A stretch of DNA of 42,000 nt, from contig NW_027590818.1 in NCBI RefSeq assembly GCF_964213995.1, forward strand, positions 124,001 to 166,000, read 5' to 3'. This document shows positions 9,446-32,003 of this stretch, in pieces. The position numbers were made by a program, and so were the translations under genes. Origin of the DNA: Mustelus asterias (Eukaryota). The notes beneath the pieces were generated by a model. That model had not been told where the DNA came from, made no database searches, and was given only the letters and a program-made list of their open reading frames with translations. Numbering within the stretch: position 1 is the stretch's first letter; the number at the start of each line of letters is the position of its first letter.

Positions 9446-10353
9446 TTATTTCAATCGTTTAAATATCAGACAGAATGGGTATGTCAGCCAAATCTTTAAC
9501 TCCTCCCTTACTTTACTCTGGGTGCCTGCGTAAATGAATGGGTTAATGCAGGAACTCAACAGCTGAAGCATATACCCACCTTCGTCCAGAATAAAATTCG
9601 ATTGATTGTAATTGGTGCCCGAGAAATAGCTAACGTTCGCAATTTGGACACAGAGAAAAGTTGTAATTACTAACGAATATAACAAGATGAAACTTCCAGA
9701 GACACAGAAGAGTAAAACAATCGACTTTCGCCTCTTCTCCACTTCAGGGTCTCTCTGATTCTCTGCATTGCTTTGATCCAAGAGTCTGCTCCGGGCTCTG
9801 TTGGCTATAACGATGTGCCTTACGGTCAGTGCATTAAACAGTAAAATCAAAATGAATGGAAGACAAGGATTTAAGATGACGAAAATCCAGTCAAATGAGA
9901 CCCAAGCAGCTGTTGTGTAATATGTTGTTTTTAAGTTGCAGTACCATGGTGTCTCATCGATGAAAAATGCAGGCTCATAGATAAAGTACAGCGGGATATT
10001 TCTTACACTGTTCAGAGCGCAGGCAGTTCCAATAACCACAGCTGCTGTTTTTTCTGTGCAAAATTTGGTTTTCAGTTTCTGACAACAAATCGCAACAAAT
10101 CGATCAAAGGTGAACGCGACGGTGACCCAGACAGATGAATCCCTGACCCCATAAATCAGCATAAGACTAACACGACAGACCGGAGTGATGGACAGGAAAC
10201 TGAATTGGAAATAAATACCTATAATCCGGTTAACTATTACAGCAGTGATGATTACGAGGAGATCCGTTACAGCCATGAATACCAGGTAATAAGTGATACA
10301 TTTGGAAAGGCCACATCTTCCTCGAGGTAGGATCACAATCACTGCCAAATTAG
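9446..10353 (-). CDS. GPR139/GPR142-like class A GPCR, gene 1, exon 2 (spliced protein 325 aa)
   Basis: Acceptor TTTTTCCTGTCACAG then phase-1 (A)NLAVIVIL; open through TM7 with MAVTDLL, TPVC, FTFDRFVAIC, WYC, SSCINPFIY. Confidence 0.92.
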
Positions 10354-10929
10354 CTGTGACAGGAAAAACAGCATGTGAATAATGCTAGAAAATAAGGACA
10401 GAACATAAAATATTGCAATGACTCAGAAGTCGGGAAATCATTGCAGAGAGAGCAGTTTTAGCATATCAGGTGGATTACCTGCCTCGTAACTGGAGGAAAT
10501 AAAACCACTCAATGCACACAGCTGCTGGCATGTTGCTGCAATATTAGGAAGATTTTTGTTTCTCTCATATGGCGGACACTGAACTTGGTACTTTGCAGAT
10601 CATTGGCAGGAAATACAATTAATTATCATCTGTCTCAAATTGTAGAGAAGAACAAAGATAAGAAGAGTCATTGCGAATCATTGCGAATTCGAATGGGCTC
10701 TAATACTATATTGACCAAGGAATTGGGCAGAAAGACAATATATGACATTGAGTGTTAAAGAAGGGAAATGTTTCACACAAAATAAAAACAGAAAGAAACG
10801 ATGACTGAAATATAAACGACCCATTTGCTTGGGAAGAGCTCGACTCCTGATTGATAATGATCACAAACTAATATATCAATAATTTGCATAAACCAATAAA
10901 GAAACTCAACATGTAAATATCTCATTGCA

Positions 10930-11724: not shown

Positions 11725-11794
11725 CTGGAAACCCAACAGCTGCAAGGATAGGATAGTAAATTGCAAACAGCAGACCTTTTGGTATTCCATGCAT
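11725..11794 (-). CDS. GPR139/GPR142-like GPCR gene 1, exon 1
   Basis: 70 nt, MHGIPKGLLFAIYYPILAAVGFP + G, donor GTACAG; same length and phase as exon 1 of gene 2. Confidence 0.9.
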
Positions 11795-11844
11795 TTCAAG
11801 CACAAACTGAGAATTTGTTTTGCACAACCCCGAAAGATTGTCAC

Positions 11845-11906
11845 ATTTATACCAGATCTCAGTCTCAGCGGACATAATTACATGGTTTGATGTTGCACAT
11901 TAATTG
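11845..11906 (-). promoter_or_regulatory. Proximal promoter of GPCR gene 1
   Basis: CAATTAA...TAATTA-TG-TCCGCTGAGA...TATAAAT 57 nt before the ATG; aligns with 29380-29440. Confidence 0.6.
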
Positions 11907-12358
11907 CACATGTTCGTTTAATATCCAACATCACCCTATGATGCTGCCGAAATTGCTGGTGTTTTCCTTTTAATTTAATAGACATTTTATTGAAAAGTTC
12001 ATCCAGCAGTTGCCAGGTAGAGTAAACAACTAGATAAAACTCCACTTCAAAAATAAAGTTATACGAGCAATGTGGAACGTTTTTTGTCGAAACAACTCTG
12101 ATGTGGAACCAACATATTGTACTGTATGATTGCTAGGTGATAACGTATAGCCCAACAGGCCGTTGCAAAAGTGAAATAGAGAGTTATGCATAAGGAGTCC
12201 ATCAAGGGTAACTCAAACCAATTCAGCTGAAGGTATAACTGACCAGAAGTCCGAAAGGCAGATGTAACCAAGTTCGAGATCCCGATCATTATTGACAGAG
12301 CGTAATCACCGATCAAACTGCAATGTGGGCCCAGATCTATCTGAAACCTCGACCCGGA

Positions 12359-14120
12359 ATCACAGAACAACAGAATAATACAGTGCAGAAAAGACCCTTC
12401 CGCCCATCGAGTGTGTACAGACGCATGAAAGGCCCTGACCTGCCCATCTAATTCCAATTGCAAGCACTTAGCACATAGCCTTGTATGCTATGGAGTGCCA
12501 TGTCCACATGCAAATATTTTGTTTTGAAGGATGTGAGGCTTCCAGCCTCTACCAACCTCCCAGGCCGTGCATTCCAGACCGTCATCACGCCCTGGGTAAA
12601 AATAAATGGTCCTCAAATTCCCCCTTCACCTCCCACCTCACTTTTAATTTGCGTCCTCTCGTAACTAACCCTTCAACAAAGGGGGACAGCAGCCTTCTAT
12701 CCACCTCGTCCATGTCCCTCATAATTATGAACAACTCAATCAGGTCGCCCTTCAGTCTTCTCTGCTGCAGAGAGAAAAACTCAAAGCCTGTCCAACTTCT
12801 CTTTATAACTTAAATGCTCCATCACAGGCAACATCCTCGTGAATCTCCTCTGCACCCTTTCCATTGCGATCACATCCGTCCTATAAGGTGGCGACCAGAA
12901 CTGCACAAAGTACTCCAGCTGCGGTCTCCCCAAAGTTCTATACAACTCCATCATGACCTCTCCACTTTTGTAATTTATACCGCGATTGATCAAGGCGAGG
13001 GTGCCACATGCCTTTTTCATCACCCTATGAACCTGCCTTTCCGCCATCAGAAATCTACGGAAAAATACGCAAGGCCGCTTTCTCTTCGGAACTTCCCAGT
13101 GTCAGATCTTTCATAGGACACTTCCCTGTCAAATTACTCCTTCCGAAGTGTATCACCTCACACCTTTCAGGGTTAAATTCCAACTGCCACTAATCAGCGC
13201 ATTTGGCCATCTCGTCTATATCTTACTGTCCCCCAGACACTCAACCTCACTGCTAACCACCCGGCCAATCATTGTGTCATCAGCAAACTTACTGATTTTA
13301 TCCCCCATATATCAATCTATGTCATTTATATCAATGACGAACGATTGGGGGGCCAACACGGACCCCTGTGGTACGTCACTGTTCACTGGCCTCCCCACAC
13401 TAAAGCAGTCGTCTGTCATCACCCTCTGTCTCCTATCGCTAACCCATTATGAATCCACCTTATCAGATCACTGTGTATCCCGTGTGCACTCTTAATAAGT
13501 TACCTATGTCGGAGTTTGGCAAAGGCTTTGCTGAAATGCATGTAAGCTACATCAACGACGCTATCCTTAACACTTGTTTACATGCTCAAACAATTCAATC
13601 ACATTTGTTAGGCATGACCTCGCTCTGACAAAACCATGCTGACTATCTCTAATCGTACGTTACCTCTACAAATGGAGATGGATGATCTCGTTCAAAATCT
13701 TTTCCAGCAGTTTCCGAACCACAGACGTAAGATTCATTGGTCTGTCGTTCCCCCATGCTCGCCTTTCTTTTTAAATAGTGGGACCACATTAGCTCTTCTC
13801 CAGTCCACTGAGACCTCTCCGGTGGCCAGCGGGCAATTTCCTGCGTCGCCTCCCACAACAGCATGGGTCACAATTCATATGGACCTGTTGACTTGTCCAC
13901 TTTTAGCCCGCCAATTCCTTCCATACCTTGTCACTCCATATGATAATTTGCTCCAGAACCTCACAGTCTCTCTCCCCGAGTTTCATAACTACCTCTTCAT
14001 TCTCGTGGGTGAAGACCGATGTGAAATATTCGTTTAACATCCAACAACTGGCCTCTGCCTCCACCAACGGATTTTCCCATTTATCCTTAACAGGCCGTAT
14101 TCTTTGCCTGGGTACCCTGA
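12359..14120 (-). mobile_element. CR1 LINE, older and frameshifted
   Basis: RPQLEYFVQFWSP and LNEYFTSVFT remnants; 3' UTR at the left end. Confidence 0.9.
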
Positions 14121-15413
14121 GCAATTCTGCCCCTTTAAAATTCTGCGATAAAATTTCACTTAGAAATTTTAGAGAATGGAAACTTTGTTATGTTCCTGTC
14201 TCACTTTGTATATTCCAAACTCATATGTTGCAAAGCAGAGAAATGCATCTTGCTATTCATTCAGTGCTTCTGATTTTGAAAATATTCTGGACAATACAGC
14301 GATTCACAGGATATATAATGATCCACACACACTCCAAATGAACTTATTATAAGAAGCACAGAGAAAGCCGGACCTGAAAGTGCAGGAGAAATTGTTCACT
14401 TCATATCTTAATTAGCTGAATTTAGGAATTCAAACCCTGATTTGCATCCCACCTTTAATATAATGTTCACGTTCAATTGCAGTTTAGACATAGAAACATA
14501 GAAAAACTACAGCACAAATAGGCCCTTCGGCCTCACAAGTTGTGCCGAACATATCCCTACCTTCTCGGCCTACCTATAACCCTCCATCCTATTAAGTCCC
14601 ATGTAATCATCCAGGAGTGTCTTAAAAGTCCCTATTGAGTTTGCCACCACCACCACTGATGGCAGCCGATTCCACTCGCCCACCACCCTCTGTGTGAAAA
14701 ACGTCCCCCTAATATTTCCCCTGTACCTACCCCCCAGCACCTTAAACCTATGTCGTCTCGTAGCAGCCATTTCCACCCTTGGGAAAAAGCCTCTGAGAGT
14801 CCACCCGATCTATGCCTCTCAACATCTTATATACCTCTATTCGGTCTCCTCTCATCCTACGTCTCTCAAAGGAGAAAAGAAGGAGCTCCCTCAGCCTATC
14901 CTCATAAGGCATGCCACTCAATCAAGGCAACATCCTTGTAAATCTCCTCTCCACCCTTTCAATCATTTCCACATCCTTCCTGTAATGAGGCGACCAGAAC
15001 TGAGCACAGTACTCTAAGTGGGGTCTGACGAGGGTCTTATATAGCTGCATTATTATCCCCGGACTCGTAAACTCAATCCCTCGATTGATAAAGGCCAGCA
15101 CACCATACGCCTTCTTAACCACCTCCTCCACCTGCGGGGCCGATTTTAGAGTCCTATGGACCCGGACCCCAAGTCCTTCTGATCCTCTACAGACCACAAC
15201 GCATTGATCTGGGTTGAAGTCCATCTGCCACTTCTCCGCCCAGTCTTGCATCCTTTCTATGTCCCTCTGTAACTTCCCTCATCTCCCTCATCCAAGTCAT
15301 TTATGAAAATGACAAACAGCAACGGCCCCAGAACAGATCCCTGGGGCACACCATTGGTGACCGACCTCCATTTAGAAAAAGACCCATACACACTCTCTGG
15401 CTCCTTTGGGCAG

Positions 15414-15782
15414 TCATGATGTGGAGATGCCGGCGTTGGACTGGGGTAAGCACAGTAAGAAGTTTCACAACACCAGGTTAAAGTCCAACAGGTTTATTTG
15501 GTAGCAAATACCAAAAGCTTTCGGAGCAGAGCTCCTTCGTCAGATGGAGTGGTTATCTGTTCTCAAACAGTACACAGACACAGAAATCAAATTACAGAAT
15601 ACTGATTAGAATTACTGATTGCATTCTAATCAGTATTCTGTAATTTGATTTCTGTGTCTGTGTACTGTTTGAGAACAGATATCCACTCCATCTGACGAAG
15701 GAGCTCTGCTCCGAAAGCTTATGGTATTTGCTACCAAATAAACCTGTTGGACGTTAACCTGGTGTTGTGAGACTTCTTACTG
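15414..15782. mobile_element. Penelope-like fold-back element (family B), young copy
   Basis: ~161-bp inverted arms (15452-15612 / 15623-15783, about 4 mismatches, 10-nt loop); 12-bp TSD TCCTTTGGGCAG at 15402-15413 and 15783-15794; AATAAA in each arm. Confidence 0.85.
15688..15724 (+). ncRNA. Minimal type I hammerhead ribozyme motif
   Basis: CCAT-CTGACGA-A-GGAGC-TCT-GCTCC-GAAA-GC-TT-ATGG: stem I CCAU/AUGG, intact core, 5-bp stem II, palindromic AGCU in place of stem III. Confidence 0.75.
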
Positions 15783-17619
15783 TCCTTTGGGCAGGCCAGT
15801 TCTGGCTCCACAGGGCAGCAGCACCTTGGATTCCATGCCCTCTCACTTTTGCTAGAAGCCTTGCATGGGGGACCTTATCGAACGCCTTGCTAAAATCCAT
15901 ATAAACCACATCTACCGCTTTCCCTTCGTTAATGTGTTTAGTCACGTTTTTGAAGAACTCCACCAGGCTCGTAAGGCAAGATCTGCCTTTGACAAAGCCG
16001 TGCTGAGTATTCTTGAGCATACTAAACCTCTCTAAATGCTCATAAATCCCGTCCCTCAGCATCTTCTCCATCAGCTTACCAGCCACTGAGGTTAGACTCA
16101 CCGGTCGGTAATTTCCTGGGCTATCCCTATTCCCCTTCTTGAAAATAGGAACCACATCCGCAATCCTCCAGTCCTCCGGCACCTCTCCCATCTCCATTGA
16201 TGACGCAAAGATCATCGCCTGAGGCTCTGCGATCTCTTCCCTCGCCTCCCACAGTAACCTGGGGTACATCCCATCCAGACCCGGCGACTTATCTATCTTG
16301 ATGCCATTCAAAGATTCCAGCACAACCTCTTTCTTAAAGTCCACATACTCAATCTTTTCAGTCCACCGCAAGACCACAGTACATCCACCCAGGTCCTTTT
16401 TCTCTGTGAAAACCGAGGCAAAATACTCATTAAGCACCTCTGCCATTTCTACTGGTTCTGTACAGACTTTCCAACCTTCAACGTTTATCGGCCCTATTCC
16501 TTCACGTCTCATCCTTTTTCCTTTCACATATTTATAGAACGCCTTAGGGTTCTCCTTAATCCTACCTGCCAAGGCATTCTCGTGATCCCTTCTGGCTCTC
16601 CTAATTTCCTTCTTTAGTCCCTTCCTACAAGCCGTATACTCATCTAGATCCCTATCTTCGCCAAGCTCTCTGAACCTTTTGTACGCTTTCCTTTTCTTTG
16701 CGACTAGGTCCCGCACAGCTTTCGTGCAACACGGTTCCTTTAACCTACCAACACCTCCCTGTCTGCTCGGAACATTGTCCTGTAGAACTCGAGACGGACA
16801 TTCCTTGAAAAACTGCCACCTCTCTTCACTACATTCCCCGGGAATACCTCCTTCCAATTTACTCCTCTAATTTGCGGCCTTATGTCTTCATATTTCCCCT
16901 TACACCATATAAACGCTTTCTGAGCTAGCCTGATCCTCTCTTTTTCCAATGCAAGCACAAAGGTGATAGAGTTATGATCGCTATCCCCAAGATACTCTCC
17001 CACTGAGAGATTTGACACCTGTCCAGGTTCATTGGTCAGTATCAGATCAAGTACAGCCTCTCCTCTTGTAGGCTTCTCCACATGCTGTGTTAGGAAACCC
17101 TCCTGAACACACCTAACGTACTCCTCCCCATCCAATCCCCTTGCCCTAGGGATATTCCAATCTATGTTTGGGAAATCAAAGTCTCCCATCACAACAACTC
17201 TGCTATTACTGCATCTCTCCACGAGCTGTTTCCCGATCTGCTCCTCCACCTCCCTGTTACTATTGGGCGGCCTGTAGAAAACTCCCAGCAAAGTGATCGA
17301 CCCCTTCCCATTCCGAACTTCCACCCACAGAGACTCTGTAGACAATCTCTCCACAGCATACACCTTCTCTACAGCTGTGATTCCCGCCTTAGTCAATGCG
17401 CAACCGTTATCCTACCAGTGGCTGCTGCAAAGTAACTTCGTCAGGTGGTTACTTCGAATTGCTTTCTTCCTCAGAAGCGACTGTCCGAGCTCTTTAGAAC
17501 AATGTTGGTCTAAATAAAGGGTGATTATACTGTTGCAAAAAATGTATGAAGCGTCAACTTCGCTGCAAAAGAATGTTGTAATTCGAGAAGTTCCGTTTCC
17601 ATTCGTTCATACAATGTGA

Positions 17620-17842
17620 AAATCGCTGGCAAGGCCAGAATTTGCTGCCCATCCCTAATTACGCTTGTCAGAAAGTAACAACCCAGCACATTGTGATGGC
17701 TCAGGAGTCACTGGCGAACAGATTATTGCGGATGGCAGATTTCCTTCGCTAAGTGAGATTAGTGAGACTCGTGCGTTTTTATAACAACGAATGATAATTT
17801 CATAATTACCATCCCTGCGACCAACTTTCAATTCCAGATTTT
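17620..17842 (-). mobile_element. Decayed SINE sharing its tail with the old LINE family at 905/2327
   Basis: TCGCTGGCAAGGCCAG...GCCCATCCCTAATT...GGATGGCAGATTTCCTTC...TTTCAATTCCAGATTT. Confidence 0.5.
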
Positions 17843-17899
17843 AGTACCATGTGTCGATAAATGAGAAAACTGTGTAATAAACTTGGAATGTTTAACATT

Positions 17900-18720
17900 G
17901 GAAATTTGGACAGAGGAGGCAGCTAAAGTGGGAAAGGGATTCAGTTCTCACAATGTGTGCAGGATAACGTTCTAACTCACTTAAAAATGACATCCCAGGA
18001 AGTGAAAATCAACTATTGGATGTTATGATGGAGAATTAACCCGTGTGAATAAATGAGTAAGAGTAGGAGGGAAATAAGAAGACAATACTCACCATAAAAT
18101 ATTAAACTTAAACTTCCAGGGAGCTACATTCAGGGACAGATTGCAGCTCGGGACGGGAGACTGGAATGGCGGCGATTACATTAAATAAAATCCTGCGCCA
18201 GCATTCGACAATGCAATCGGTTAAATTTGCTCATAACTAAAAAGAAACTTGCACAATAAAATGACCCATCGAAAATGCAGAATGTGCTATAGGTATGAGC
18301 GAGATGGGACACCAAATGTACTGGGGTGGAAACTTCAAATAAGTAAGCGTACTTTAAGCATATCCGGAACAGTTGATAAGCAGTATTGGGCTGTATTTGT
18401 GAAGGAAAAGTGAACAACAAATGAAAAAAAATCAGAGAAAAATAAATTGGTGTCGATGATAATGAAATAATATTTAACAAAGTGTACGTGAAAATAGATA
18501 ACTCTTTAAAGCAATGAATGACAATGTAATGCAGCAATGAGCGGGAAACAAGCACATTTATTAGCAGGAAGATGAATATCAATGCAAGTAGTAAATTCAC
18601 ATTCGTCGGGCCAGATATTCCTGTCAGTACGACTGGCAGATTTATTAATGACACTGTTTTTCTCACTCTTTCCTGTCTGACGAAGAACTGAATTAAATTT
18701 GCGCGAAAAACTCCTCAAAT
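17900..18720 (+). mobile_element. Heavily decayed CR1 ORF2 fragment (endonuclease region)
   Basis: Remnants resembling CVQDNFL, LDLV and DH motifs in purine-rich sequence. Confidence 0.5.
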
Positions 18721-18754
18721 CTGTTCCCCAGGTTTGTGGTTGAAGTGAGAGAAT

Positions 18755-18771
18755 GCTACCACCTGCTGGCG
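18755..18771 (-). promoter_or_regulatory. Possible CTCF site
   Basis: Reverse complement CGCCAGCAGGTGGTAGC; motif match only. Confidence 0.35.
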
Positions 18772-19609
18772 GCTCACAGATATTGCAGGATCGAGCCTTT
18801 TTGAGTTTCAGAGAAGTTCAGTGACTCCATGGTTGCTTCTGCGAAGCGGTTCCTGAAATTTGAATACTGAAATGCATCGTTAGGGATGGATGTTTTCAGC
18901 AGGAGCTCGTCTGCTGCGTTCCAGTGTTTTGTCGCAGTCCATTGTGACGTGAATAATTTCAGGAGGATGTCCCGAATATACTCCCCTAATCTCAATAAAT
19001 TGACCACCAGGAGCCCCTGGCTCCAATGCTTTCCAGTGAATCATCAAAACCAACATTCGCAACTTCCACTTCTTAGCTGTAACCCTTCCCAAACATTTTG
19101 ATCTATTTTACTCAGAGTTTGTTCTTGCATTTAATATTTTCTTGCATTGTGACCTCATTTTCAAATCAGATCCACTTCAACATCCAACACATCGACTTCC
19201 TTCTTTTGAGAAAATGAGAAATTCGCGAGAAATCAGTCAATGTCCAAGGGGGTGTCTCCATACTGCGCAGCTTGCTGATGGCTGAGGAGGCTAATCCTCG
19301 GATGCCGATTCTGACACAAGTGCTGGAATGAAGCTGCCTGGTGTGTTTGTGGGTTAATGCTTTTTCCTTGGCATCTCTTTGCAAACCGCTATAACCACTG
19401 CCAATCTTGGTGATGCACTGCACCCAAATGGAAGTGTCGCCATTCTGTCTGGGGTCAGTAAGTGTAATTCCGGTACGAAAATCGATACCGTGGATATCTG
19501 TATCACACTTACAGGCATGAAAAAGCAAGAACTATGAGCTGTTATGTCTGATCTTATCTCGGCATAAACAACATTTTCCGACGCGCTCAATCTCGTCATT
19601 TCAACCCTT

Positions 19610-20020
19610 GCTAATTAAAAATCTCTCTATCATCTCTCATCATCTCTGTTTTAAATCGCCAACTCCTTATTCTGAAGCTATGACCTTTCGTTCTACATTG
19701 TCCGACAAGATGAAACATCCTCTCTAAATCTATTTTGTCAATCCCCATTTTCACCTCGTAGACCCTAGTTAGATCTCCTTGCATTCTCTTAAATTCCAAG
19801 GACTACAGGCTTAAACTTACAAATCAGCCTTCAGGAGACAATGCGCTCAACTGTGGAATCAATCTGGCAAACCAGCTCTGAATGACCTCAATTTAACTAC
19901 ATCCCTCTTCAATTGAGGGGATTAATACTGTACGCTATATTCTAACTGTGGTCTCACTAATGCTTTGTCCAATATCAGCAATCCTTCATAACTTTTATAT
20001 TCTATTTCGATAGCAATGAA
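19610..20020 (-). mobile_element. Decayed CR1 3' ORF2 fragment
   Basis: EFKRMQGDL...TKGHSFRIR; RPQLEY remnant. Confidence 0.8.
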
Positions 20021-20438
20021 TCTCACAACTGCTTGAAATTAAGGCCTGAAAATCTTGCCGACGAAATATTAGAATACTTTTCAAATGATGCACGGTAGGC
20101 CGAAGGGGCAGTAATTTGGAGAACAGGATTTGTCTTTTTTTTCTCGTGGACAGGACATACTTGGAATATTTTCCACATTTTCTTTTGTGTCAGGAATGGA
20201 ATTGCTGGTACATTTGTATGGCTACTTGGAGACAACGGTCTGCATTATCGCTGCCCAGATGCAGCCACGTCCCATAGTCGCTTCTGTACACAGAGCCATC
20301 AACCGTTTGTTGATAGCACGTGGACCAAATAATATTCGCAGAAGTTTGAAACTAATGATGCTGCAATCCGCGGGAGTCGGAACAGAGAAAATCTCGAGTA
20401 TCCAATGCAGTATAAAACAGTGAGAAATTGCAAATTGC

Positions 20439-23400
20439 AAAGAACTCAAACGAGGAATTAGAAGGGCAAAAAGGGGTCACGAAATGTCCTTGGCAGACAG
20501 GATTAAGGAGAATCCCAAGGCATTTTATTCATACGTTAGGAACAAAAGTGTTGTCAGGGTAAAAATCGGACCTCTCAGGGACAAAAGTGGGGAATTATGC
20601 TTGGAGCCCAAAGAAATAGGGGAGATCCTAAATGAATACTTTGCCTCGGTATTCACAAAGGAGAGGGATGTGTTGACTGGGAGTGTCTCGGAGGGGAGTG
20701 TTGAACCGTTGGAGAGAATCTCCATTACAAGGGAGGAAGGGTTAGGTTTGTTAGACAATATAAAGACTGACAAATCCCCAGGGCCTAATGGAATCTATCC
20801 AAGGCTGCTCAGGGAGACGAGAGATGAAATCGCTGGGCCTCTGACGCAAACCTTCGTCTCGTCACTGGATGCAGGTGAGGTCCCAGAGGATTGGAGGATA
20901 GCTAATGTGGTCCCGTTATTTAAGAAGGGTAGGAAGGATAACCCGAGTAATTATAGGCCGGTGAGATTGACGTCCGTGGTGGGGAAGTTGTTGGAGAAGA
21001 TTCTTAGAGATAGGATGTATGCGCATTTAGAAAGGAATAAACTAATTAACGATAGTCAGCATGGTTTTGTGAGAGGGAGGTCATGCCTCACTAACCTGGT
21101 GGAGTTTTTTGAAGAAGTGACCAGAATGGTTGACGAGGGAAGGGCCGTGGATGTCGTCTATATGGACTTTAGTCAAGCGTTTGACAAAGTCCCTCATGGT
21201 AGGCTGGTGCAAAAGGTTGGATCTCATGGGATAAAGGGGGAGGTGGCTAGATGGGGGGAGAACTGGCATGGTCACAGAAGACAGAGGGTGGTAGTGGAAG
21301 GGTCTTTTTCCAGCTGGAGGCCTGTGACTAGTCGTGTTCCGCAGGGCTCTGTATTGGGACCTCAGCTGTTTGTGATTTATATAAACGATCTGGAAGAAGG
21401 TGTAACTGGGGTGATCAGTAAGTTTGCGGACGACACAAAATTGGCAGGACTTGCAGATAATGAGGAGCATTGTTGGTTAAAAAGAAAAAGGAGGCTTATG
21501 TTCGGATGAGACGTGAGCACTCGGGTAGTGCACTAGAAAGCTTTAGATTGGCTAAGAGGGAGTTGAAGAGCGAGCTTAGAAGGGCTAAAAGGGGACATGA
21601 GAAGACTTTGGCGGATAGGGTTAAAGAGAATCCTAAGGCGTTCTATAGGTATGTCAAGAACAGAAGGTTGGTTAGGGCAAGTTTAGGGCCAGTTATAGAT
21701 GGCAGAGGGAAGTTATGTGTGGAACCGGAGGAGATTGGTGAAGCATTGAACCAATATTTCTCTTCGGTGTTCACGCAAGGGGACATGAATATAGCTGAGG
21801 AGGACACTGGGTTGCAAGGGAGTAGAATAGACAGTATTACAGTTGATAAGGAGGATGTGCAGGATATTCTGGAGGGTCTGAAAATAGATAAATCCCCTGG
21901 TCCGGATGGGATTTATCCAAGGATTCTCTGGGAGGCAAGAGAAGTGATTGCAGAGCCTCTGGCTCTGATCTTCAGGTCGTCGTTGGCCTCTGGTATAGTA
22001 CCAGAAGATTGGAGGTTAGCGAATGTTGTCCCATTGTTTAAGAAGGGGAACAGAGACTTCCCCGGGAATTATAGACCGGTGAGTCTCACTTCTGTTGTCG
22101 GCAAGATGTTGGAAAAAATTATAAGGGATAGGATTTATAGTTATTTGGAGAGTAATGAATTGATAGGTGATAGTCAGCATGGTTTTGTGGCAGGTAGGTC
22201 GTGCCTTACTAACCTTATTGAGTTTTTTGAGAAAGTGACCAAGGAGGTGGATGGGGGCAAGGCAGTGGACGTGGTATATATGGATTTTAGTAAGGCGTTT
22301 GATAAGGTTCACCATGGTAGGCTTCTGCAGAAAATGCAGATGTATGGGATTGGGGGTGATCTAGGAAATTGGATCAGGAATTGGCTAGCGGATAGGAAAC
22401 AGAGGGTGGTGGTTGATAGTAAATATTCATCATGGAGTGCGGTTACAAGTGGTGTACCTCAGGGATCTGTTTTGGGGCCACTGCTGTTTGTAATATTTAT
22501 TAATGATCTGGATGAGGGTATAGTTGGGTGGATTAGCAAATTTGCTGATGACACCAAAGTCGGTGGTGTGGTAGACAGTGAGGAAGGGTGTCGTAGTTTG
22601 CAGGAAGACTTAGACAGGTTGCAAAGTTGGGCCGAGAGGTGGCGGATGGAGTTTAATGCGGAGAAGTGTGAGGTAATTCACTTTGGTAGGAATAACAGTT
22701 GTGTTGAGTATAGGGCTAACGGGAGGACTTTGAATAGTGTGGAGGAGCAGAGGGATCTAGGTGTATGTGTGCATAGATCCCTGAAAGTTGGGAATCAAGT
22801 AGATAAGGTTGTTAAGAAGGCATATGGTGTCTTGGCGTTTATTGGTAGGGGGATTGAATTTAGGAGTCGTAGCGTTATGTTGCAACTGTACACAACTCTG
22901 GTGCGGCCGCACTTGGAGTACTGTGTGCAGTTCTGGTCCCCACATTACAGGAAGGATGTGGAGGCTTTGGAGAGGGTGCAGAGGAGGTTTACCAGGATGT
23001 TGCCTGGTATGGAGGGGAGATCCTATGAGGAGAGGCTGAGGGATTTGGGATTGTTTTCGCTGGAAAGGCGGCGGCTAAGAGGGGATCTTATTGAAACATA
23101 TAAGATGATTAGAGGTTTAGATAGGGTGGATAGTGATAGCCTTTTTCCTCTGATGGAGAAATCCAGCACGAGGGGGCATGGCTTTAAATTGAGGGGGGGT
23201 AGTTATAGAACCGATGTCAGGGGTAGGTTCTTTACCCAGAGGGTGGTGAGGGATTGGAATGCCCTGCCAGCATCAGTAGTAAATGCGCCTAGTTTGGGGG
23301 CGTTTAAGAGATCCGTAGATAGGTTCATGGACGAAAAGAAATTGGTTTAGGTTGGAGGGTCACAGTTTTCTTTTTAACTGGTCGGTGCAACATCGTGGGC

Positions 23401-24312
23401 CGAAGGGCCTGTTCTGCGCTGTAATGTTCTATGTTCTATGTTCTATGTTCTATTGTCAGAAGCTACAGAAGGATATAGATAGGCTGGAAATTTGGGCAAA
23501 GAAATGGCAGATGGCGTTCAATCCTGATGAATGCGAAGTGATGCATTTTGTTAGAAATAATGTAGGGAGGAGCTATACGATAAGTGGCAGAACCATAAAG
23601 GGTGTAGATACGCATAGGGACCTGGGTGTGGAAGTCCACAGATCCTTGAAGGTGACGTCACAGGTGGAGAAGGTGGTGAAGAAGGCATATGGCATGCTTG
23701 CCTTTATAGGACGGGGCATAGACTATAAAAGTTGGGGTCTGATGTTGCAGATGTATAGAACGTTGGTTCGGCCGCATTTGGAATACTGCGTCCAGTTCTG
23801 GTCTCCACACTACTAGAAGGACGTGGAGGCTTTGGAGAGAGTACAGAGGAGGTTTACCAGGATGTTGCCTGGTATGGAGGGGCTTAGTTATGAGGAGAGA
23901 TTGGGTAAACTGGGGTTGTTCTCCCTGGAAAGACGGAGGATGAGGGGAGACTTAATAGAGGTGTATAAAATTATGAAAGGCATAGATAGGGTGAACGGTG
24001 GGAAGCTTTTCCCCAGGTCGGTGGTGACGTTCACGAGGGGTCATAGGTTCAAGGTGAAGGGGGGGAGGTTTAACACAGATATCAGAAGGACATATTTTAC
24101 ACAGAGGGTGGTGGGGGCCTGGAATGCGCTGCCAGGCAAGGTGGTGGAGGCGGACACATTGGGAACGTTTAAGACTTATCTGGATCGCCATATGAACGGA
24201 GTGGGAATGGATGGATACAAAATAATGGTCTCGTTTAGACCAGGGAGCGGCACGGGCTTGGAGGGCCGAAGGGCCTGTTCCTGTGCTGTATTGTTCTTTG
24301 TTCTTTGTTCTT
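20439..24312 (+). mobile_element. CR1 LINE (outer copy), split at 21473/23452
   Basis: ORF2 rejoins as ...DNEEHC|QKLQKDIDRL...; one internal stop (TAG near 23814); (TTGTTCT)n tail. Confidence 0.95.
21474..23451 (+). mobile_element. CR1 LINE (inner, young copy) with an uninterrupted ~625-aa RT-containing frame
   Basis: All RT motifs intact ([16 protein letters not shown]); (ATGTTCT)n tail; TSD ATTGT at 21469-21473 and 23452-23456; 5'-truncated, no endonuclease. Confidence 0.97.
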
Positions 24313-25272
24313 AAATCACTGTTCCGCCTCAATTTACATTTAAAAGTTAAAATGTAATTGGTAAATTGGCTATAATTATATTTCCTCCACTTTCATGGGA
24401 ATGCATCTTCCGAAAAGTAATTTATCACGTTATCTCAATTGAAAAGGAGACCAAAAGTGTTAGGTAAACTATTGCTTCTCAATTTTGAAAAGGAAGTTGG
24501 ACAAATGGTTTCATTGGAAGCGCGTTGGTTGTCGTGTCAATTACACTGAATGAGCCATTGTTTGTGGAAGATAGTGGGGTGCTTCCCAGGACAAGTCAAA
24601 AGTTCCTGTCCTTGTAAGAGGAAGAAAAACTGAGAATATTAATATGCGAAGTAGGGTGGGGATTCCACAGCTCTGGTGTCCATCAACCAGGGTAGGATGA
24701 ACACTCGTGGCTTAGATAAATATTGAACTGTTGGAAATGGTAACACGGCTGTATAATCGGCCCAATAACTATCTAAATGAAGGAAATGCGAGCAGAGAAC
24801 ATAAAATGCGAGAGGGAAAAGAATGGGAGAAAGTGCAGCTAAGGAAGCAGTCGGATTTACAGGGCGATTTAGTGGATAATAATTACCAACTTCTAGCAAG
24901 AAATATACAAGGCAAAATCAATCGAAAGTGCGGAAAATTTAGAGATCAACATTGGGAAGGATTGGAAAGGGAATATTTTGGATGCAATTGAGCAATATTT
25001 CAGTATTGTTTGTAAGAGTGGGAAACAACACTGAGTTAAGGACATTTTAAACACAGCGTGAAGGAAATGTTGAGCAGGGCTAGAACAGGAATGAAATAAA
25101 ACAGATATAGCGCAGATATAGCTATGTCCTTACACATAGCAATGCCTATTTATTCAATCAATTGATTGTTTTTTTTTAAAGGGTAAAATCTTCAATGTGA
25201 CATTTTCTTCCAATACTCCTGGGTCTGGTCATCAGCAGAGTCACGATTAAACTGAGAAATTAATAGGTAGAG

Positions 25273-29379: not shown

Positions 29380-29440
29380 CAATTAAGACAAAAGTTAAGA
29401 CGACTAATTAAATCTCTAGAGCCTGTTATGGAGTATAATT
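29380..29440 (+). promoter_or_regulatory. Proximal promoter of GPCR gene 2
   Basis: CAATTAA...TAATTA-AA-TCTCTAGAGC...TATAATT 55 nt before the ATG; aligns with the gene 1 promoter. Confidence 0.6.
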
Positions 29441-29488: not shown

Positions 29489-29558
29489 ATGCACGCAATA
29501 CCGAAAGGTCTGGTGTTTGCCATTTACTATCCTGTCCTTGGGGCTATAGGGGTTCCAG
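29489..29558 (+). CDS. GPR139/GPR142-like GPCR gene 2, exon 1 (not in the ORF track)
   Basis: 70 nt, MHAIPKGLVFAIYYPVLGAIGVP + G, donor GTATGA. Confidence 0.9.
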
Positions 29559-31092: not shown

Positions 31093-32003
31093 CCAACTTG
31101 GCAGTGATTGTGATCCTGTCTCGAAGAAGATGCGGTCTCTCTGGATGTGTCACTTATTACCTGGTTTCCATGGCGGTAACGGATCTCCTGGTGATGCTCA
31201 CGGCTGTAATATTAAACCGAATTGCTGGCATCTATTTCCCCTCTAGTTTCCTGTCTATCACACCAGTTTGCGGTATTCGTGCTGTCCTGAATATCACAGC
31301 AATGGACAGTTCTGCCTGGTTAACGGTCGCTTTCACCTTTGATCGATTTGTGTCCATTTCCTGTCAGAAGCTGAAATTAAAATATTGCACAGAAAAGAGA
31401 GCGATGCGTGTAATAGGAATCGTGTCCATTCTGGCCTGTGTAAAAAATATCTTCCTATATTTACAATTTGAACCTCGGTATATCATTAATAACGTACCCT
31501 GGTTCTGCATGATAAGAGGAATAATTTATACATCACCAGCTTGGGCAGCGTATGACTGGATCCGTTCCACTTTAACCCCTTTTCTTCCTTTCATTCTGAT
31601 TGCATTGCTCAATGCTCTGACTGTCAAACACATTCTAGCGGCTAATAGAGCCCGCAGGAGACTCCGGACCCAGAGCAATGGAGAGAATCAGAGTGACCCA
31701 GAGGTGGAGAAGAGGAGAAAGTCCATTGTTTTACTCTTCGCCATCTCGGGCAGTTTCATCCTATCTTATTTGTTATTTTTTATAAACATCCTCTTTGTGC
31801 GAATTGCTAAAGTTACTTATTTCTCGGGTTCGAATTTCAGTAATTCCACGTTCATTCTCTCTGAGACTGGATATATGCTCCAGCTCTTGAGTTCTTGTAT
31901 CAACCCCTTTATTTATGCTGTGACCCAGAATAAAATCAGAGATGAGTTAAAGAATGGGATGAAATATCCACTGAACGTTTTTGTAAAAATATTTATGTCT
32001 TGA
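31093..32003 (+). CDS. GPR139/GPR142-like class A GPCR, gene 2, exon 2 (spliced protein 326 aa)
   Basis: Long polypyrimidine tract + CTTACAG, phase 1; (A)NLAVIVIL, MAVTDLL, TPVC, FTFDRF, WFC, SSCINPFIY; no disruption. Confidence 0.93.

Follow-up and report, generated by a model that had tools for sequence, protein, structure and literature searches.

The first exons of two receptor genes in the window (the whole 42,000-nt stretch of Mustelus asterias DNA analysed here) are preceded by a position-fixed core-promoter module under selection, in which an O/E (EBF)-like site stands 11 nt before a TATA box. The module is real and functional-looking, and EBF is quite probably the protein that binds its conserved site. 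The best reading, held at somewhat less than even confidence, is that of a core promoter driven by EBF in chemosensory neurons, which would probably be olfactory.

Genes 1 and 2 are intact two-exon rhodopsin-class receptors. Gene 1, on the reverse strand, has a first coding exon of 70 nt (11725..11794; 23 codons plus one nucleotide, followed by a GT donor), which starts with the ATG at 11794 and fits the N-termini of database models. With the second coding exon (9446..10354) it gives a spliced model of 325 aa, a class A GPCR (7tm_1, E 2.6e-19). Gene 2, on the forward strand, likewise combines a 70-nt exon with a GT donor (29489..29558, ATG at 29489) and a second exon (31093..32003) into a class A GPCR of 326 aa (7tm_1, E 2e-23). 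The two genes are oriented head to head with about 17.7 kb between them, their second exons are 64% identical, and a Pfam search with both proteins at E <= 0.01 returned nothing beyond 7tm_1. The DNA between them (12000-24400) contains reverse-transcriptase-like frames on both strands, the longest of 628 aa at 21464-23350, which we take to be CR1-type LINEs; an inverted repeat with arms of about 170 nt (about 15440-15790) is, by eye, apparently inserted in a LINE fragment. The head-to-head pair (window 9446-32003) recurs at five other places in the genome assembly (G000; C71:14.11-14.13 Mb, C71:7.64-7.66 Mb, C90:170-190 kb, C108:9-28 kb and C138:712-733 kb) with a protein identity of 99-100%, one of the recurring copies of gene 1 containing a stop. 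These five extra copies can be read as recent segmental duplication or as uncollapsed haplotypes.

The family to which the receptors belong is expanded in elasmobranchs, very large and little studied, and carries the automatic name 'probable GPR139'. A homologue search gave 1716 matches; among the 120 listed, 119 were shark proteins that carry a name, in most cases 'probable G-protein coupled receptor 139'. Ten of 150 divergent family representatives were looked up, and these included skate and stingray proteins as well as salamander, coelacanth and teleost homologues at 28-34% identity. Single queries against the species' own genome retrieved at least 130, at least 130 and at least 124 full-length matches on many contigs, with near-identical copies counted among them. 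Large and clustered across many contigs, the family varies most on its ligand-facing side (mean entropy 1.96 vs 0.86 bits, from 72 sequences of this one family with segments drawn by eye). Class A GPCR alignments commonly vary more on the outer side. Compared with solved structures, the family profile matches human GPR139 best (E 9.5e-26), and a PDB search with a single sequence gave weak matches only. Membership in the OR, TAAR, V1R/ORA or V2R families was rejected on the basis of this best solved relative and of the Pfam result.

In a quick version of the family tree (64 rows, canonical GPR139 not among them), one clade consists of shark and ray sequences together with two long-branched salamander rows, and two single-copy sequences fall outside it, L201, which groups with coelacanth and teleost rows, and L202. 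The salamander proteins, P0224 and P0277, nest inside the shark-expansion clade; L201 and L202 are shark single-copy relatives in common with bony fishes. Fish and coelacanth relatives of GPR139/142 have been described as GPR210A/B (PMC6504862). The shark and ray family resembles GPR139/GPR142 and GPR210A/B in its best structure match and in the name that databases apply to it. However, the match is distant, and the relatives are single-copy whereas the shark and ray family is multi-copy. The coelacanth and teleost rows of the tree may be GPR210.

In gene 1, the module lies on the reverse strand and begins with an upstream homeodomain-like CAATTAA (11900..11906), which is moderately conserved and variably spaced across the family. 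The homeodomain core TAATTA (11875..11880) follows after 19 nt and is separated by 2 nt (TG) from the O/E (EBF)-like site TCCGCTGAGA, TCCG-CT-GAGA (11863..11872), which matches TCCCNNGRGA at 7/8 bases and is followed, 11 nt later, by the TATA box TATAAAT (11845..11851). In gene 2, on the forward strand, CAATTAA (29380..29386) is followed after 18 nt by TAATTA (29405..29410), after another 2 nt (AA) by the O/E (EBF)-like site TCTCTAGAGC, TCTC-TA-GAGC (29413..29422; 6/8 matches), and after 11 nt by the TATA-like box TATAATT (29434..29440). The sequence-only reading had placed one module in both genes, and it is present in both, but the first spacer of gene 1 measures 19 nt and not 20 as claimed. 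Its other observations agree with ours: the distance from TAATTA to TATA is 29 nt in both genes as read from the sequence, their 5' regions can be aligned, their first introns (1370 and 1534 nt) are dissimilar (best local match between them only E = 0.074), and both O/E matches are imperfect. The TCCG variant of gene 1 is also found in the paralogue L082, and the most frequent form in the family is TCCCTGGAG. The O/E-like sites of the window genes are weak, degenerate examples of the family site.

The module was followed through paralogues picked by exon-2 position alone. From 60 such stretches and the window genes, 55 of 62 had the first exon within reach, and collapse at 88% exon-2 DNA identity left 34 non-redundant close paralogues. 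Their consensus is TAATTA-2 nt-TCYC-NN-GAG-11 nt-TATA, and their alignment reads TAATTA-TC-TCCC-TG-GAGC-CTGACATC...TATAAAT. Among the 25 of the 34 that could be parsed, 17 have an AT-rich upstream homeodomain-like site (background 4.7%) and 21 keep the 29-nt spacing between TAATTA and TATA. Parsimony changes, counted on the exon-2 gene tree of all 34, leave a base-specific footprint. The first half-site (T, C, C/T, C) has 2/1/4/2 changes and the second (G, A, G) 3/3/2, while the central NN pair has 12 and 10 and the base after the second half-site 10; the columns of the TAAT core have 7/5/3/1 and those of the TATA box 2/1/2/0. Four-fold sites average 9.6 changes, with only one of 64 at three or fewer. 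The O/E-like bases, the TAAT core and the TATA box therefore change far less than four-fold sites, which upholds the expectation of conservation above the neutral rate. Because the spacing is kept and changes fall below those of four-fold sites, the module goes beyond chance and shared ancestry. An EBF dimer on TCCC-NN-GGGA would be expected to leave just such a footprint, with two constrained halves and 2 nt between them free to change. In the close clade the palindrome ends in C and not A, and this final base drifts neutrally. All these promoters come from one ancestor, and the data are therefore evidence of selection, not of independent gains. Genome-wide, the exact 17-nt pattern has 35 matches vs 20 for a reversed control, which is weak alone; of 30 matches fetched, 26 are located 85-86 nt ahead of the ATG of a family member, often in copies that are nearly identical, and four lie elsewhere.

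More divergent members of the family were sampled from 60 further stretches, 43 of which had a first exon located by coding features only; with L201 set aside, 38 non-redundant genes remain, at 43-55% protein identity to gene 2. The region -140..-50 relative to the ATG was scanned on both strands for matches to TCCCNNGRGA. Scores of at least 7/8 occur in 25/34 promoters of the close set and 16/38 of the divergent set, against backgrounds of 4.5% (778 windows) and 6.3% and shuffle maxima of 5 (close, 100 shuffles) and 7 (divergent); the enrichment extends across the family. Perfect sites are present in 7 of the 38 divergent promoters vs 1 of 882 background windows. When a strict TATA box was located first, 23 of 34 close and 22 of 38 divergent promoters qualified, and an O/E site of at least 6/8 stands 8-15 nt before TATA in 22/23 and 15/22 of them, respectively (background 5-7%). 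Pooling the divergent sites gives TCYC-NN-GRGA, the full symmetric form, with the terminal A in 16/22; since the best offset in this pooling is chosen by score, which favours the pattern, a background control was run. The pooled form fits both the published O/E consensus, TCCCyngrgar (PMC3247239), and the OMP probe, which contains TCCC-TG-GGGA (PMC5608512). Several divergent genes on C8 and C72 are without a clear TATA box or site, the TATA-O/E module was not seen by eye in 450 nt of the L201 promoter (where a 5' UTR intron is possible), and the search for a first exon of L202 gave none. As the O/E-TATA pair is kept in divergent clades at 43-55% protein identity, it is an old element common to the family.

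The homeodomain neighbour has a narrower distribution. The sequence-only reading had set the O/E site beside a homeodomain site; the O/E site is indeed found family-wide with TATA, but its homeodomain neighbour is limited to certain clades, the adjacent hexamer being present in 17/23 close and 4/22 divergent promoters (background 0.8%). The spacer between the two is 2 nt in 15 cases and 0 nt in six, and 1 nt in none of the 45 anchored promoters; the substitution footprint puts it at 2 nt. Lhx2, named as the homeodomain factor, cannot be singled out, as TAATTA does not discriminate it from other homeodomain factors. Close promoters also contain CAGCTG (11/23; background 3%) and TGTTTRYT (7/23; background 2%), presumably an E-box and a Fox-like word, together with TGACRTC words; the first two would be equally at home in a neuronal and in a B-cell promoter grammar. 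In the divergent clades (L161-L220), the O/E-TATA core is accompanied upstream by GTAACTAAT-type words in 5/22, by TTGCAA-type words, which we take to be C/EBP-ATF-like, in 9/22 and by Fox-like words in 7/22. Such clade-specific words may mark different cell subtypes.

Two promoter sets from the same genome serve for comparison. Crystallin promoters (20 fetched and 15 parsed, one of them probably spurious, not collapsed) show an O/E score of 7/8 in 0/15 and a site at a gap of 8-15 nt in 0/15. Their cluster (L251-L270, contig C14) comprises some fifty tandem genes, and the promoters have TGCTGA and AATAACAA in common, presumably lens Maf and Sox sites. V2R promoters were taken from contig C3, where 40 stretches yielded 26 with a first exon and 16 non-redundant genes. 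Sites of at least 7/8 are enriched here as well (7/16 vs 7.7%, p 0.0003, with the search window chosen after viewing), and 11/16 promoters have a TATA box. The shark V2R/OlfC promoters thus resemble those of the receptor family in having TATA boxes and O/E-like sites upstream of the ATG. In contrast to the fixed TATA gap of the receptor family, however, the V2R sites are unanchored, scattered 46-144 nt before TATA with only 1/11 at a gap of 8-15 nt. Many V2R promoters (L121-L159) have the O/E variant TCYTYN-GGGR with a run of T behind it, well ahead of TATA. V2Rs are expressed in catshark olfactory neurons (PMC10116579), and O/E-like sites have been described in all 39 mouse V1R promoters examined (PMC3247230).

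Among known systems, the module invites comparison with the Greek Island composite of mouse OR enhancers and the J element, in which Lhx2 and Ebf sites lie 1 bp apart; it is over-represented in enhancers and depleted from the promoters of ORs (PMC5608512, PMC11643329, PMC7804114). Like the composite, most close-clade promoters have a homeodomain hexamer directly ahead of a pyrimidine/purine block of EBF type. If one mismatch is allowed, the loose published composite pattern is found in 20/23 close promoters (background 38%) and 8/22 divergent ones, but it is too permissive to establish membership, as 36-45% of background windows match it at that level. The two differ in the spacer (2 or 0 nt in the shark family, 1 in the mouse composite), in location (the promoter of each shark gene, as opposed to OR enhancers) and in the homeodomain adjacency, which is absent from most divergent shark clades. 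Membership in the strict Greek Island composite was rejected because of the spacer and the promoter location. A closer likeness is to mammalian OR promoters (PMC3247239; TATA in a subset) and V1R promoters (PMC3247230), which similarly have an O/E site near the start, a homeodomain site nearby and a TATA box, and serve large clustered families of class A GPCRs. Here the differences are that the shark O/E site is locked 8-15 nt before TATA in most anchored promoters, that the shark ATG is in the first exon, 50-110 nt later, and that the shark receptors are neither ORs nor V1Rs. By analogy, the module would work like an OR or V1R promoter and is not a member of the composite class.

In the mechanism that best accommodates these data, an EBF (O/E) dimer would bind TCYC-NN-GRGA about one helical turn before TATA, assisted in the close clade by a homeodomain factor. 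The receptors would thereby be expressed as a varied repertoire of sensors in chemosensory neurons, most probably those of the nose, and a compact promoter of its own may let each duplicate stay expressed wherever it lands. It is extremely improbable that the conserved bases are instead functionless leftovers of duplication or chance TAATTA matches. The promoters are paralogous and the exact pattern has 35 matches against 20 for its control, but the footprint lies far below the neutral rate, the introns of the window genes no longer align and the site is retained in remote paralogues. Chance or neutral inheritance was rejected on the footprint, and is also contradicted by the O/E enrichment and the TATA-anchored counts. 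Binding by a factor other than EBF, such as a zinc-finger or GATA protein, with the O/E likeness incidental, is improbable. While the missing terminal A in the close clade and the TTATC-type GATA words in 9/23 close promoters (vs 16%, p 0.01) would suit such a factor, the divergent sites have two-fold symmetric TCYC/GRGA halves around a free 2-nt centre, seven of them perfect. GATA as the main reading was rejected because the bases that complete the GATA word drift neutrally on the tree (11-12 changes).

If EBF is the binding protein, the cell type is a separate matter, since EBF functions in B cells and adipocytes as well as in many neurons (PMC3113313) and its site therefore does not specify the nose. 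A neuronal or sensory site of action is likely. Chemosensory neurons, the nose first, are the predicted place of expression, with a probability a little under one half; family size, clustering and outer-side entropy, as well as O/E-like sites in shark V2R promoters, argue for the nose. Counted against it is that catshark olfactory neurons are apparently nearly all microvillous (PMC10116579), while it is from OR enhancers of the mouse that the Lhx2/Ebf composite is known. Rather unlikely, though by no means negligible, is a true EBF site that acts outside the olfactory neurons, in neurons of the brain or ganglia or in sensory cells such as those of taste, solitary chemosensory cells, the lateral line or ampullary organs. 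GPR139, the nearest solved relative, is a brain receptor. The homeodomain adjacency is clade-limited, the remaining upstream motifs vary by clade, and expression of ebf2 and ebf3 extends over the brain, the spinal cord and the placodes (PMC3113313), all of which would suit such cells. However, a large, clustered and pocket-variable family fits a one-receptor-per-cell repertoire better than a brain peptide receptor, and O/E-like sites are found in V2R promoters too. An EBF module of B lymphocytes or other non-neuronal cells (EBF1 with E2A and Foxo1), the receptors then serving immune or endocrine chemosensing, is distinctly improbable. In B cells, E2A and Foxo1 are partners of EBF1 (PMC3113313), and the E-box and Fox-like words of the close promoters would suit such a module; against this, octamer-like sites are not enriched (1/23 close promoters), the E-box is not enriched in the divergent clades (3/22, p 0.2) and conservation of the TAAT core speaks for a partner of the homeodomain class. 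As for direct records of expression, a search of sequencing runs with exon 2 of gene 2 listed four matches, no RNA among them. The excerpts of the catshark atlas main text make no mention of GPR139, and the top-50 olfactory list, as excerpted, includes no GPCR of any kind, and hence is uninformative on the family.

The promoter grammar itself is known. Its TATA-locked use by a GPR139-related lineage was not found in family-directed searches of open-access papers, nor was any description of the family or its promoters. Published surveys credit sharks with about 34 V2Rs and with few genes of the OR, TAAR and ORA families, and the shark nose has been called a 'de facto vomeronasal organ' (PMC10116579). 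These genomes also contain, behind an automatic name that misleads, a much larger family of GPCRs whose promoters are of chemoreceptor type. It is conceivable, with the balance tilting somewhat towards doubt, that sharks and rays have an unrecognised olfactory receptor family: hundreds of GPR139-related class A GPCRs with O/E-TATA promoters of their own, outnumbering the V2Rs several-fold. If so, the mismatch between large shark noses and a reportedly tiny receptor repertoire would be resolved, and EBF-based receptor promoters would have been recruited independently to a new GPCR lineage. If the genes are expressed elsewhere, the module would still point to EBF-positive cells; if they are expressed in the olfactory rosette, the list of vertebrate chemoreceptors would gain a family, and shark olfaction would need re-description.
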